DNA of 64,000 nt from an uncultured delta proteobacterium (GCA_963760795.1 CAVXEP010000025.1:96001-160000), one strand, 5' to 3'; counted from the stretch's first letter, positions 31,360 through 36,286 are shown. Program-made: numbers and translations. The notes: generated from the sequence alone by a model not told the origin.

Positions 31360-32535
31360 ATGGCAGCTAATCCGTTAGACAATCTGCGCGTCGACCATAT
31401 CGGCAGCATGGTGCGGCCGGCGCAGCTCAAAGAGATCTTTGCCCGCTTCGACCGCGGTCAAGCATCCAAAGATGCATTGACCCAAGCGCAAGACCAGGCG
31501 ATCCGCGACGTCATCGCGCAGCAGGAAAGTCACGGCTATCCCGTCGTCACCGACGGCGAGTTTCGCCGCCATAGCTTTCAAGAGAGCTTTTCCGAATGCG
31601 TCACCGGCTTCGACGTGCCGAAAAATATCGCTCTCTACTACGAGAAACGCGACTTGAACGAAACTCCGCTGGAGCGCGCGGAGCAAAACTTTGACGAAGC
31701 CGGCCCCGCGATCGTCACTCGGCGAGGCGCCGCGCAAAGATTACAGGTGGTGCGCAACCTGCCGCTTGAAGAATACCGCTATGCCCAGAGCGTCTCCAAC
31801 GTCCCGGCCAAAGTCACGATCCTCGGCCCTGATCGCATCGCCCAGCGCTTCAAATGGGAAGCGTCGTTGAATCTCTACAAAGGCCTCGACGACTTCGTCG
31901 AGCATATCGTTGCCATCGAACGGCAAATGATCGCCGAGCTCGTGAAAGCCGGCTGCAAGTACATCCAGATCGACGCCCCCGGCTACACCGCCTATGTCGA
32001 TAAAGTTTCGCTGGAGAGAATGCGTTCTCGTGGCGAGGAGCCGGAACGAAATTTCCAACGCTCCATCGAGGCCGACAACGCGCTGATCGAAGGTTTTCCC
32101 GGCGTGACTTTCGGAATTCATATCTGCCGCGGTAACGCCCGTACCATCGATCCGCAAACCGGCAAGCTCGTCCCCCAATGGCACCGCGAAGGCTCCTACG
32201 ACGCCATCGCCGAGAAACTCTTCAACACGCTCAGACATCAAAGACTGCTTTTGGAATACGACAGCGACCGCGCCGGCGGCTTCGAACCGCTGCGCCTAGT
32301 TCCCAAAGACAAAATCGTCGTCCTAGGATTGGTCTCGACCAAGAACTCCGACATGGAAACCGTCGACGATCTGAAACGCCGCATCGATAAAGCGACTCAA
32401 TACCTGGCAATCGACCAACTCGCGTTAAGCCCGCAATGCGGCTTCGGCGGCATCGACTCGAAAGTTTTGAGCGAAGATGAGATGTGGAAGAAGCTGGATA
32501 CGATCGTCGAGACGGCAAAGCAAGTGTGGAGTTAA
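31360..32535 (+). CDS. Cobalamin-independent methionine synthase II (MetE C-terminal-like) family protein
   Basis: DHIGSMVRP, TDGEFRR, YIQIDAP, Zn ligands HICRGN / LEYD / LSPQCGF. Confidence 0.88.
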   Translation: MAANPLDNLRVDHIGSMVRPAQLKEIFARFDRGQASKDALTQAQDQAIRDVIAQQESHGYPVVTDGEFRRHSFQESFSECVTGFDVPKNIALYYEKRDLNETPLERAEQNFDEAGPAIVTRRGAAQRLQVVRNLPLEEYRYAQSVSNVPAKVTILGPDRIAQRFKWEASLNLYKGLDDFVEHIVAIERQMIAELVKAGCKYIQIDAPGYTAYVDKVSLERMRSRGEEPERNFQRSIEADNALIEGFPGVTFGIHICRGNARTIDPQTGKLVPQWHREGSYDAIAEKLFNTLRHQRLLLEYDSDRAGGFEPLRLVPKDKIVVLGLVSTKNSDMETVDDLKRRIDKATQYLAIDQLALSPQCGFGGIDSKVLSEDEMWKKLDTIVETAKQVWS

Positions 32536-32560: not shown

Positions 32561-32845
32561 CTAACTGTCCGGCCTGACGCTACTCAGCCACTCCTCGTGC
32601 ACATCGACCCAGATCGTGTCCGTATCGTGGCAGGTCGATAGCTCGCTTAAATCGAATTTGACGGTGTAAAGCGGATTGTGAATGCCGCGGTGATCGCGGA
32701 TGTTTTCCAGGATGCCATGGACTAGGCCGATGACGCCGCGCTTGCCGCGAATGTAACGTGGCGTGCGCGGGTTGCCGGCTGGGTTTTCATTGGCGACCAT
32801 GACGGCGTCGCCGATTTTATATCTGCTAATGGTATCGCTCATCAC
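32561..32845 (-). CDS. Stand-alone nitrile hydratase beta-subunit C-terminal SH3-like domain (ScnA-like)
   Basis: 94 aa: YKIGDAVMV...PAGNPRTPRYIRGKRGVI..VHG...PLYTVKF...EL...IWVDVHEEWL. Confidence 0.85.
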   Translation of the reverse strand: MMSDTISRYKIGDAVMVANENPAGNPRTPRYIRGKRGVIGLVHGILENIRDHRGIHNPLYTVKFDLSELSTCHDTDTIWVDVHEEWLSSVRPDS

Positions 32846-32850
32846 CGTTC

Positions 32851-33925
32851 TCAGTCAGGCCGGACGCGCGGCATTTCCGGCTCGACATGGGCTGCTTCTC
32901 TGGCGCGCAATTGCGAAGGCTCCAACGCATAGCCCGCGCCGATCAAACTATCGACCGTGACCAGCTTGGCCAATTCTGGTTCCGACATGCCCTCGGTGCC
33001 AGCAGGACGTTGAGGCAAGACGAAGTAACGCACGTCGGAGGTGCTATCCCAAACCCGCAGTTCTTTATCACTGCGGAAACTCAAGCTGAAACATGTCCTT
33101 CACGCAGGCGCGCGGGTTTTGCACGATGTTGGCGCGGTAGCTTTCGTGCTTGTACCACCACGGAGTGTCACCGAGGATGTCGTAAGGATAACAGGAGCAT
33201 AGCGTGCAGACGATAACGTTGTGCGTCTTTTCGGTATTTTCGACAACGACCAATTTGCCAACCTTGCCCTGATGCACGCCCATTTCTCTGAGCGCCTCGC
33301 GGCCGGTATCGAGCAACGCCTGTTTGAACTCCGGGTCGGTCCAAGCCTTGGCGACGATAACGCCGCCGGCCCAGGGCCGTTCTTCGTGTAATTGCTTCCA
33401 GCGCTGTGCTAAGTCTTCGCGCGTCGCCCAGCCGCGCTTGATCAACGCTTGGACGAATACTTCCAGCAACTCCTGATAGTCGTTTAGATCTTGCTCCAGG
33501 TTCACCATTCGCTCTTCGAGGGTGCCATGGTGTTCTTTCTTCTTGATCTTGAAAAACTCGTCGTAGTCGCCGCGCTCTTTGCGGTTGTCCTCGGTGACCA
33601 TGTCCATGCCTTCGACGGTGCGCGCTGAAACCAAGGCGATGCCTTTGACATACTCATCGAGCCATTCTTCCAAATAGCGCACCCGCGCTTCGACGTTTTT
33701 CCCCTGGGGCTTGGCCATCTTGAAGAAATGATCTTTCTTTTTAAGCGTCGAGCGCACTTTGAGCAGGTCGTAAAACGTCACGACGTTACGCCGGAGTAAA
33801 TAGAAAATCCGCGGCTCGAAGCGCTTGGCCCGGTAATACTCCAGATCCTCTTCGACCGCTTTGATATGCGCCATGTAGTCGTGCATATGACCCTCGAAGG
33901 GTCTATGCCCATGTTTTCCTGACAT
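32851..33925 (-). CDS. Cobalt-type nitrile hydratase alpha / thiocyanate hydrolase gamma family subunit with long N-terminal extension; frameshifted as sequenced
   Basis: IVAKAWTDPEFKQALL, VVENT..THNVIVCTLCSCYP in 33068-33925; WDSTSDVRYFVLPQRPAGTEGMSE.ELAKLVT.DSLIG in 32851-33084; one extra base near 33075-33092, about 357 aa when corrected. Confidence 0.9.
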
Positions 33926-33951
33926 CGAAACTTCCTCCGAGTTGCTGCGCT

Positions 33952-35670
33952 TCAGTGGGTATCAAAAATTTCCTGGTATTCTTTCAATTTCGCTTTGGTC
34001 GCGTCGGTTTCCGCGTCGGTCGGTTTGGCCGCATCCGCCGCCGGCGGTAAACAACCCAACTTCAACAAGCACGCCATTAACAACAGCCGCGCCTTGGTCG
34101 CGGTCAAATTGCTGCCGGCAATCGCCAGCGGATCGCGCGTGGCATCGACAAAACCGCCGGCGTTGCCGCGGCCGACTTTGACCACCGGCATGCCGCTGTA
34201 GGTCGCGCGCTTTAACGCCGCGTCCACCGAGTTGCTCATGGCGCCAAAAGGAGCTGAGCCTTCGGCAACGAAGCCGGCAAGCGGCGAGATGCGCAGATTG
34301 TTTTCAATGCGCGCGAGAATATCGACTTCGCTGCTGGCGTCGCCGGAGGTGTCCTCAGGCAAGTAGCGCGCATGCTTGACGATGGTAACTTTCGGAATCG
34401 CCGGCGCCAATAAATTACCCGCGGCATCCTTGATCGGCACCGCGATGATTCCGATCGTTGAACGTTGAACCGTTGAACCTTGGACACTGCGCGGCAACTG
34501 GCGCAGATTCACCAGCGATCGATGGGTATGCCGCTTGATCGGTTTGAAAGAAAACTGCGGCGCGCCGGGATGGCCCATCCTGCCGATGATACCGCCATGG
34601 CCGCCGGTAGCGATGTAGCCGCCGGGACGGGCATCGGCTTTTTGCACATCGCGCGCGGTGAATATCTGCTCGTCGAGAATCGCTACCGCGCCGATATCGT
34701 CATGGCCGTTGTCATCGGCCCAAATCTTCGACGTGATGTAATTCACCGAATCGACGATATTGCGGTCGCCGTCATTGCCGATGGCGCCATGCGGACGCTG
34801 CGAGGAATTACCAACGATAGGCACTGTGGTGTCGATCAACAGATTGAGCCAGTACGTCGTCTCTTCGACAAACGGGCTGCCTTCGAGCCAGATGGCACCT
34901 AAATAGCTTCCACCGCGCAAAGCTTGTTGAACGACGTTGGTCAACCGTGCCAGCGCTGCCATGGGGGGTTCTTTTCGTAGATAACCGGGACGGTAGGGAA
35001 AGAAATCACTGCCACGAATCTCGGGCGGAATGTCGCCAGTGCCGATATCGGTGCGTTCGCTCTCACGGCGACCTGTCGCGTAACCGCCTGACGGCAGTGC
35101 GCGGTAAAAGTCGAATGCAGCTTTGGCTGTAAGCAAACACCCCACGCCTTCGTCGGAGATACCCAATCGGTCGATCTCTTCAAACAAGCGCGAGCCGTCG
35201 GGAAAGAACGGCACGCGCACCCGTTCGGCAGTAATATTTTTTTCCGTGCCGTCCATCTCCCATGGCTTTCCGTTAGCTTGGCGCGCCATGTAGGGCAGCG
35301 GGTAGAGACCGTCTTCAGGTTCGAGCGTAATCTCGTAAACCGGCTTGTCGCCGGGACCGGTGCGTTCCTTGTGAAAATTACCGGCTGCGTCGAGATAGCC
35401 GTCCGGTGGCGCATAGAGCTCGGCATGGTCTCTCTCGAGCGGGTGGGCGCTGAATTGCTCGACATAAACCGTCACCGGCGCAGCCAAGCGCTGCGCGCGC
35501 AGCACGTCGAAACGCATCGGCGAGCCGTCTTTGTTGGCGCGAACAGGCACGCCGTACTTTTCGCGCGCCTTGTTGCTGGTTACCAACGGCTCGCTGTTTT
35601 GAATCGTCGCCGTCGGTCCGGAAAAAACCGCGATGCGCGGTTTCGCGTCGCTGCCTGTGTCAGCCATCAT
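33952..35670 (-). CDS. Large asparaginase/glutaminase-fold protein with divergent catalytic motifs
   Basis: RIAVFSGPTATIQN, EGSPFVEETTYWLNLL, PIVGNSSQRPH...DGDRNIVDSV, IFTARDVQK, GMPVVKVGRG, AGSNLTATKARLLLM, YQEIFDTH. Confidence 0.75.
   Translation of the reverse strand: MMADTGSDAKPRIAVFSGPTATIQNSEPLVTSNKAREKYGVPVRANKDGSPMRFDVLRAQRLAAPVTVYVEQFSAHPLERDHAELYAPPDGYLDAAGNFHKERTGPGDKPVYEITLEPEDGLYPLPYMARQANGKPWEMDGTEKNITAERVRVPFFPDGSRLFEEIDRLGISDEGVGCLLTAKAAFDFYRALPSGGYATGRRESERTDIGTGDIPPEIRGSDFFPYRPGYLRKEPPMAALARLTNVVQQALRGGSYLGAIWLEGSPFVEETTYWLNLLIDTTVPIVGNSSQRPHGAIGNDGDRNIVDSVNYITSKIWADDNGHDDIGAVAILDEQIFTARDVQKADARPGGYIATGGHGGIIGRMGHPGAPQFSFKPIKRHTHRSLVNLRQLPRSVQGSTVQRSTIGIIAVPIKDAAGNLLAPAIPKVTIVKHARYLPEDTSGDASSEVDILARIENNLRISPLAGFVAEGSAPFGAMSNSVDAALKRATYSGMPVVKVGRGNAGGFVDATRDPLAIAGSNLTATKARLLLMACLLKLGCLPPAADAAKPTDAETDATKAKLKEYQEIFDTH
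34456..34485. repeat. Short TTGAAC-core tandem repeat inside a coding sequence
   Basis: cgttgaa-cgttgaac-cgttgaac-cttggac, read as VQGSTVQRST on the minus strand. Confidence 0.55.
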
Positions 35671-35707
35671 GACCTCGCTAAAATAGAATGAGCGAAATCA
35701 ACTGATC

Positions 35708-36286
35708 TCATTTAAGCGCAAATGGCAGCTGCTTAGGTCCGTAGCCCTGCCAATATTTGTTGGTTGCCGGGTCGTAGCGTCCCTGGAGAAAACCGCCGGC
35801 CTTTTCGGCGCGGACGATGATCGCTACAGTCCGTTCGTCGCCGCTCTCCTCGGCGTGAATCGCATAGGGCGGCACCAAGTCGATCTTGCCTGCACTCACT
35901 TTGACGTTCACCGACTTGCGCACCTCGGCGTAGTCTGGCTTCGACCGATCATCGACCCGTTCATAACGCTCAATGGATTCGGAACCGTCGAGCACGCCGT
36001 AAAGCGTCCAGTTATGCGCATGATCGTGGATCGCCGTGCGTGTATGCGGCGCCTTGATCAAGCCGTTGATGACGAATTTGTAGTCGGGATCCTCATAGAA
36101 AAGCAAATTCTCGGCGCGCTCACCGCCCTGAGAGCAATCGGGCCACTGCTTCGACTGTTCTTTCACCGCCGGGTCGGCAATCAGCTCCTCAAGGAGAGGG
36201 GTCATTTTCTCCCAGCGTTTTGCCGGATCGGTTTCCTCGGCGTGAAGCATGCGCGCGGACGCGATAAACTTTTGCACTGCAGACAT
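35708..36286 (-). CDS. Cysteine dioxygenase-like cupin metalloenzyme
   Basis: LLFYEDPDYKFVIN, TAIHDHAHNWTLYGVLDGSE.IERYERVDD, PYAIHAE (three-His cupin); AAGGAGG RBS. Confidence 0.78.
   Translation of the reverse strand: MSAVQKFIASARMLHAEETDPAKRWEKMTPLLEELIADPAVKEQSKQWPDCSQGGERAENLLFYEDPDYKFVINGLIKAPHTRTAIHDHAHNWTLYGVLDGSESIERYERVDDRSKPDYAEVRKSVNVKVSAGKIDLVPPYAIHAEESGDERTVAIIVRAEKAGGFLQGRYDPATNKYWQGYGPKQLPFALK

Follow-up and report, generated by a model that had tools for sequence, protein, structure and literature searches.

Nitrile hydratases (NHases) are industrial catalysts whose beta subunit is held essential for the mechanism. In the cobalt-type alpha2beta2 enzymes, such as those of Pseudonocardia thermophila (1IRE) and Bacillus RAPc8 (2DPP), an arginine from the C-terminal half of beta (beta-C) lies against the claw loop of alpha, whose CTLCSCY motif marks the cobalt type, and ordinary NHases are said to need an arginine and a tyrosine from the N-terminal half of beta (beta-N). 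Thiocyanate hydrolase (ScnABC; 2DD4), a member of the same superfamily with a beta encoded in pieces, keeps both beta halves as separate subunits, and the toyocamycin nitrile hydratase ToyJKL consists of three genes, with both halves of a split beta encoded and no extended alpha. We analyzed a stretch of 64,000 nucleotides from an uncultured delta proteobacterium (GCA_963760795.1 CAVXEP010000025.1:96001-160000; hereafter the window, with positions counted from its first letter) containing a locus in which an NHase alpha gene with a long N-terminal extension is followed by a gene for beta-C alone. The initial annotation had proposed an unusual cobalt-type NHase-family enzyme made of an extended alpha and half a beta, and Pfam, PF21006 and amidase scans supported this proposal. 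The pair constitutes a distinct, conserved and uninterrupted two-gene enzyme of the NHase family devoid of the beta N-half. It resembles the cobalt-type NHases in its CTLCSCY claw and in a beta-C arginine set against the claw loop, but differs from them by the lack of beta-N and of an adjacent activator, by an alpha head of about 140 residues without relatives, by its sub-equivalog score against TIGR01323 and by its separate clade. Only the C-half of beta is encoded here, in contrast to thiocyanate hydrolase, and the alpha scores below the cut-off of TIGR03887; ToyJKL likewise has a split beta, but with both halves and an ordinary alpha.

The alpha gene (33925-32851, minus strand) encodes 357 amino acids (aa) once a single extra base, treated further below, is ignored, and Pfam NHase_alpha (PF02979) matches both of the pieces into which this base divides it (E 1.6e-40 and 3e-17). 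Its catalytic domain, approximately residues 157-337, is about 42-49% identical to solved cobalt-type alpha chains (PDB E 1e-52 to 1e-56) and is also matched by the gamma subunit of thiocyanate hydrolase (E 2.5e-34 to 7.8e-34). The CTLCSCY metal-binding motif noticed in the initial annotation can be read directly at 33208-33188 (minus) and the metal claw is kept, C240, C243, S244, C245 and Y246 being invariant across 35 alpha sequences. By the rule that this motif marks the cobalt type, the alpha presumably binds cobalt. All four extended alphas scored against the equivalog TIGR01323 (nitrile_alph) fell below its cut-off of 249.85, with 204.2 (the window alpha), 211.5, 209.6 and 206.2 bits, and the same four reached 141-164 bits against TIGR03887 (thiocyanate hydrolase gamma; cut-off 291). 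In a tree of the catalytic domain, 17 extended alphas formed one side of a 100/100 branch, with ordinary or split-beta alphas gathered from the loci of this analysis on the other. Some alpha homologues bear the precomputed label PF27793.

The N-terminal extension of alpha (33925-33458, minus) measures about 140 aa and begins with a His-rich, near-invariant HMHD..H segment followed by helices. AlphaFold2 (AF2) placed these helices at residues 17-45, 51-60, 78-100, 105-117 and 136-163, with a predicted local distance difference test score (pLDDT) of 71.9 overall. Twelve residues of the extension (D27, Y30, K34, R35, R45, L85, E86, R115, E117, G119, Y121 and F125) are invariant in 35 sequences of 40-90% identity. 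No credible Pfam family was found for it, and even at E<=10 there were only chance-level coiled-coil matches below threshold; its profile gave a best E of 0.2 against the PDB, a fold search with the alpha model returned matches to the alpha domain and none to the extension, and a plasmid search with the extension gave no match. Homology to beta-N or to the activator was considered and rejected: hhalign gave a probability of 0.5% against 13 beta-N/activator sequences, and both TIGR03888 and PF21006 leave the extension untouched. Among 1.84 billion representatives the extension was found in only 103 clusters, some of them full-length proteins, 332-352 aa long and 35-50% identical.

The gene following alpha (32845-32561, minus) encodes a 94-aa SH3-like domain recognized by PF02211 NHase_beta_C (E 2.4e-15), which matches only positions 132-225 of TIGR03888 and aligns to approximately residues 130-227 of solved beta chains. 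NPR27TP, DHR and LYTV.F are its invariant features in 25 sequences. An arginine in an R-x-P-R-Y motif had been singled out in the initial annotation; R-T-P-R-Y is indeed present, but Arg30 of the P-R-Y part varies across the 25 sequences and the invariant arginine is R27, which, by the alignment register, corresponds to the beta arginine placed by the literature against the oxidised cysteines. When alpha and beta-C were modelled together, as had been suggested, a confident complex was predicted, with an interaction prediction score from aligned errors (ipSAE) of 0.85 as compared to 0.00 for the best control; 58 of 80 solved complexes attain the mark applied to such models, as do 2 of 110 mismatched pairs. 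The runs shared at least 79% of their contacts, with a partner pLDDT of at least 78, and in the modelled interface beta R27-P29 lies against alpha T241-L242. Because like complexes have already been solved, this model shows likeness to known NHases and is no proof of binding.

No beta N-half gene was found accompanying the extended-alpha pair. Across the window genome (G000, completeness 88.9%), NHase_beta_N (PF21006, E<=1) matched in two places only, both on contig C16 and none on the window contig, and both flank a canonical NHase; a beta-N gene elsewhere in the genome completing a standard enzyme with the window pair had been raised as a possibility, and the genome's matches stand only beside the canonical enzyme. 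No activator gene adjoins alpha or beta-C, the sole activator-like match of the genome being located on C16 beside the canonical enzyme, and Amidase PF01425 gave 18 matches in the genome with none on the window contig. The reported absence of a beta-N, of an adjacent activator and of a nearby amidase-signature gene was therefore borne out by the PF21006 and PF01425 genome scans. The canonical NHase itself (C16:114197-115768) has, besides its alpha, a complete beta of 220 aa and a beta-N homologue resembling the activator.

Two groups of split-beta loci (L078-L082 and L045-L047) resemble the window pair in having small separate genes, a beta-C next to alpha and His-rich alpha N-termini, but differ from it in two respects: beta-C is directly preceded by a beta-N gene of 102-170 aa, and the alphas are of ordinary length and fall outside the extended clade. 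L078-L082 (for instance L078:1002-2234) are a second NHase in the genomes behind the close extended-alpha loci L009, L011, L029, L034 and L037, with a beta-N of 102-103 aa, a beta-C of 100-101 aa and a His-rich alpha start; a phosphoenolpyruvate carboxykinase-like gene lies directly upstream of them, and the next gene downstream, of about 160 aa, is likewise conserved. In Hyphomicrobiales metagenome-assembled genomes (MAGs; L045:6046-7597, L046:6115-7570 and L047:69-1521) the beta-N has 144-170 aa and the beta-C about 109 aa, and the alphas, with a long His/Asp-rich N-terminus, are 44-48% identical to the core of the window alpha.

We then compared the loci encoding extended alphas. In 36 close loci, which are close kin (alpha identity 75-98%), alpha and beta-C adjoin in 32, the remaining four ending at a contig edge before beta. 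Fifteen divergent loci of the same order have an uninterrupted alpha followed by beta-C in 13 cases and truncated copies in two. A metagenome scan with a 48%-identical member from a high-GC (guanine plus cytosine) organism retrieved seven loci, and beta-C directly follows alpha in all five that have downstream sequence. The adjacency of the two genes in close, divergent and metagenome loci designates the alpha/beta-C pair as the conserved unit. Within the window's order, the extended alpha occurs in 74 of 123 genomes, a count which like all order-wide tallies given here includes four unpublished genomes (G457, G460, G479 and G498), on which alone no conclusion depends; it is present in 68/89 genomes of family f1, 5/5 of f112 and 0/28 of f113. 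In an even sample of the phylum, the extension was detected in 2 of 401 genomes, namely the window genome and one weak match (E 7.5e-4), so that it is rare outside the order, although such a sample is no proof of absence. By their source names, members of the group come from MAGs of Binatia, Nitrososphaerales and Verrucomicrobiae, the last two being represented among the clusters found with the extension.

Some departures from the usual pair organization were also observed. In the two truncated copies (L070:7739-8255 and L073:7858-8412) a fragment of the extension abuts a fragment of beta-C and the catalytic domain is missing; these might be decayed paralogues or assembly artefacts. The beta-C gene at L065:9177-9449 (G493) has an in-frame stop, and in genus g272 (L061:9045-9392) the spacer between alpha and beta-C, usually 5-30 bp, extends to about 350 bp of repetitive DNA that looks non-coding.

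The best explanation of the locus as a whole, and one we consider reasonably probable, is an extended-alpha/beta-C enzyme with optional neighbours. The unit would be a cobalt-type alpha with its own helical head of about 140 residues, joined by a beta reduced to its SH3 domain. The alpha core would provide the Cys-Thr-Leu-Cys-Ser-Cys claw, with the beta C-half sitting on the claw loop and giving the sole invariant arginine, R27. We infer that the extension takes the place of the missing beta N-half, structurally and perhaps catalytically; it might fill the beta-N position and close the pocket, a second arginine or a tyrosine perhaps coming from R35, R45 or R115 and from Y30 or Y121. The most likely reaction would be the hydration of a nitrile or close analogue to the amide, with a substrate range unlike that of ordinary NHases. 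In the window lineage the pair stands in an operon-like row with a thiol-dioxygenase-like cupin and a long asparaginase-fold protein, the latter of which may hydrolyse the amide product.

Several observations weigh against this proposal. The N-terminal domain of alpha makes no confident contact with beta-C in the complex model and residues 101-127 fall below a pLDDT of 50 in the AF2 model; with the extension lying outside the confident interface and modelled poorly in parts, its placement over the active site is conjectural. Lacking the beta-N arginine and tyrosine, the enzyme might catalyze something else or need a partner encoded elsewhere. The nine alphas used as comparators in the tree are a small set. 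Some MAG labels may be wrong, since certain close loci are titled Chloroflexota, Udaeobacter or Eisenbacteria. Finally, the asparaginase-like gene adjoins alpha in 51 of 74 alpha-positive genomes, which could mean a tighter functional tie than the one we favour.

This clade functions, or at any rate persists under strong purifying selection, with half a beta and a new alpha domain, and would test which beta contacts are needed; its substrate range is probably new. The clade is found in abundant uncultured soil lineages, comprising Binatia, Nitrososphaerales-labelled MAGs and high-GC soil bacteria. Annotation pipelines name the extended alpha "nitrile hydratase subunit alpha", and to our knowledge nobody has assayed such an enzyme; nitrile turnover deduced from these annotations consequently rests on an unassayed enzyme. 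No description of the extended-alpha/half-beta architecture was found in the searchable literature, nor anything linking nitrile hydratase with Binatia/Binatota, with an asparaginase plus a cupin, or with a thiol dioxygenase. PMC12625717 notes an uncharacterised nthA in two lineages of ammonia-oxidising archaea, and PMC13753752 describes an ordinary NHase alpha/beta in Hikarchaeia.

Two further genes precede alpha in the window on the same strand, a cupin of 192 aa (36286-35708, minus) and a long asparaginase-fold protein of 572 aa (35670-33952, minus). Open reading frame coordinates agree with the initial annotation of four co-oriented genes, with successive gaps of 37, 26 and 5 bp between cupin, asparaginase-fold, alpha and beta-like genes. 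Their insulation from the preceding ahcY by an intrinsic terminator (36429-36392, minus), also proposed at that time, proved real by direct folding: a hairpin at 36429-36401 followed by U9 folds at -28.2 kcal/mol (z -3.66), and only one of 200 shuffles folded equally well. A scan of the ahcY-cupin spacer for consensus promoters and terminators had found no terminator, probably since it allows loops of at most 8 bases and more than that lies within the outer stem; direct folding overruled this result.

The cupin matches no Pfam or NCBIfam family, even at E<=10 for Pfam, and CDO_I in particular gave no match. The view that it is thiol-dioxygenase-like was upheld by its best solved relative, mercaptosuccinate dioxygenase (8vni, E 5.4e-8), followed by 3-mercaptopropionate and cysteine dioxygenases (E 3e-4 to 2e-3). 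Four histidines (H87, H89, H91 and H144) do not vary across 19 sequences, and three of them, H87, H89 and H144, align to the metal histidines of the solved enzymes. The cupin thus shares the three-His positions of thiol dioxygenases, but has lost their Ser-His-Tyr triad, the corresponding positions of 6xb9 reading A-I-I-V-R in the cupin; this triad is named in PMC10966181. Many arginines are also invariant in the 19 sequences, as expected for a small acid substrate.

For the 572-aa protein, the Asparaginase N-domain PF00710 covers residues 239-347 only (E 4.3e-11), Asparaginase_C is below cut-off, and TIGR00520 gives 57.3 bits against a cut-off of 314.3. Its core aligns to type II L-asparaginase/glutaminase-asparaginase (2wlt, E 2.4e-11), from which it differs by an insert of about 170 residues that separates the core from the first Thr motif. 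Of the two catalytic triads of the type II enzymes (Thr-Tyr-Glu and Thr-Asp-Lys), it retains the first Thr motif (GPTATI) and the Lys (VQK), whereas the Thr-Asp of the second triad reads Ser-Pro (GSPF for GTDT); T20/T22, S265, P266 and K344 are invariant in 24 long asparaginase-like sequences. The AF2 model reached a pLDDT of 39.1. An amidase role in the window lineage is plausible, but unproven on account of the Ser-Pro replacement.

The initial annotation had viewed the four genes as one pathway in which the cupin oxidises the alpha cysteines or a sulfur-containing substrate, with the asparaginase-fold protein serving as amidase, for instance in the conversion of beta-cyanoalanine to Asn and then Asp. 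Its genes, spacing and local linkage stood up: all four genes are present in 29 of the 36 close loci, the other seven being cut by contig ends with no replacement gene, and the linkage survives rearrangement in G409/G410, G492 and G455, the last having the cupin adjoining alpha without an asparaginase-like gene. In the 74 alpha-positive genomes, the asparaginase-like gene adjoins alpha in the 51 mentioned above, is elsewhere in three (G406-G408, far from alpha), on other contigs in two and absent from 18. A single conserved system did not emerge further out. The pair remains constant in divergent loci, but the asparaginase-like gene is found in only 2/15 and the cupin in 3/15, in altered order, and the five high-GC metagenome loci show no cupin, asparaginase-like gene, metK or ahcY in flanks of up to 9 kb. 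The asparaginase-like gene gave 92 matches in the order, two of them weak partial ones to ordinary asparaginases, which leaves 90 of 123 genomes; it occurs in 56/74 alpha-positive as compared to 34/49 alpha-negative genomes, including 24/28 of f113, and hence is not enriched with alpha. The cupin, often multi-copy, occurs in 113 of 123 genomes and in 28/28 of f113, which have no alpha at all; in g272 it completes a metK-ahcY-cupin trio located on a contig other than that of alpha and beta, and a 44%-identical cupin of Salipiger is found by itself, next to TRAP transporters. This distribution independent of alpha argues against the cupin being a dedicated maturase of the alpha cysteines and makes a small thiol acid a more likely substrate than the enzyme's own cysteines, in line with its invariant arginines.

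Long homologues of the asparaginase-fold protein, 51-54% identical, are also found on replicons of Rhizobium, Agrobacterium, Neorhizobium and Burkholderia. That long homologues outside the order can have genes of amide and urea catabolism as neighbours speaks for an amide-hydrolysing partner, while the Ser-Pro of the second triad in place of Thr-Asp speaks against one. Taken together, these observations make a four-part pathway unlikely, and the beta-cyanoalanine route in particular is a guess. The cupin and the asparaginase-fold protein are not fixed parts of the enzyme; they adjoin alpha in some sublineages only, in more than one gene order and mostly downstream of metK-ahcY. Their contexts outside the order fit a small-molecule thiol dioxygenase for the former and a general amide- or nitrogen-releasing hydrolase for the latter, both recruited beside the NHase pair in some Binatia. 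On pRt932 of R. tumorigenes (L085:8051-15732), the homologue is flanked by an acetamidase/formamidase-family gene on one side and a full urease cluster on the other, and genes for two amidases and an ABC (ATP-binding cassette) transporter lie upstream, a gene row that looks like an uncharacterised organic-nitrogen pathway; in A. vitis, it is beside flavin monooxygenases.

A further possibility is that the region downstream of metK-ahcY is a block of variable modules (cupin, a 292-aa protein, asparaginase-fold protein and NHase pair) devoted to a by-product of the sulfur or S-adenosylmethionine (SAM) cycle. Five arrangements invite this idea. Besides the g272 trio, they are metK-ahcY-cupin-asparaginase-like-alpha-beta in the window, metK-ahcY-asparaginase-like-alpha-beta-cupin in G410 (the segment asparaginase-like-alpha-beta-cupin being common to G409 and G410), metK-ahcY-292aa-alpha-beta-cupin in G492, and metK-ahcY-292aa-asparaginase-like-PrpD-like in G440, which has neither alpha nor cupin. 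In addition, a MetE-like gene convergent to the cluster and 3' of beta-C is kept there in most close loci; in the window (31360-32535, plus) it encodes 391 aa and matches only the end of the catalytic domain of cobalamin-independent methionine synthase. Yet these genomes all belong to one order, and their common synteny may simply have been inherited; the cupin is cut off from ahcY by a terminator, L013, L017, L018, L021, L022 and L024 show no metK or ahcY in the available sequence upstream of the cupin, and neither the cupin nor the asparaginase-like gene of f113 stands with metK-ahcY. We regard a dedicated block as rather improbable, and the recurrent position downstream of metK-ahcY as a hint, by way of a guess, at sulfur amino-acid or cyanide chemistry. 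The protein of about 290 aa, which has no Pfam family and starts with ...EDVGNIV.LEH.NV..PDQ..., is encoded in several genera of the order, where its gene repeatedly adjoins ahcY, the asparaginase-like gene or the NHase pair (L075:4649-5527, L094:5776-6663, L090:3331-4188 and L099:58-765).

A broader scenario would combine a beta-N-free NHase, which would do without the arginine and tyrosine held necessary for catalysis and have an unrelated helical replacement in alpha, with cyano-amino-acid recycling downstream of metK-ahcY in Binatia and a supply of nitrile nitrogen to soil ammonia-oxidising archaea. If it were true, the cupin, the asparaginase-type amidohydrolase and the NHase would recycle beta-cyanoalanine and gamma-cyano-alpha-aminobutyrate, formed from cysteine or homocysteine and cyanide, to Asp or Glu plus ammonia; we give this combination little credence.

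The reading frame of the window alpha is interrupted, with 33925-33068 encoding 285 aa followed by a stop and 33084-32851 encoding the remaining 77 aa in another frame. As the initial annotation had urged, the frame was corrected, and the break was traced to a single extra base at 33074 (minus). This base is absent from the contigs of all four sequencing runs aligned to the window (X1, X2, X5 and X6, from three studies), among which the source sample itself may be included. The 120 alpha homologues listed are all uninterrupted, with 337-395 aa and exactly 357 aa in 103 of them, and the four that were read across the break site have QLEFPRDKELRVWD or QLELPSDKELRVWD. Both alpha pieces are 84-95% identical to uninterrupted homologues. 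Amidase-signature genes of the window genome are also split into two abutting frames (C31:81277-82576, C26:4881-6099, C29:540967-542185 and C33:35392-36664), and several such splits in the same assembly suggest indel errors. That alpha is a pseudogene in a decaying cluster, as its stop after residue 285 and the remainder in another frame would have it, is hardly credible in view of the four runs devoid of the extra base, the identity of both pieces to uninterrupted homologues and the split amidase genes. The frameshift is either an error or a lesion private to this assembly, and the gene family is alive; given its absence from the four runs and the uninterrupted homologues, it is no sign of the dead gene that had been feared.

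Elsewhere in the window, 9 kb from the cluster, the Ni/Co transporter-like gene mentioned in the initial annotation (23785-23024, minus) was confirmed as a NicO-family member with 31.2 bits against a cut-off of 27.7; that it supplies the cobalt is a guess. Another gene (29939-27288, minus) encodes an 883-aa protein fusing a cyclic-nucleotide-binding domain with a Na/sulfate-symporter-type transporter.

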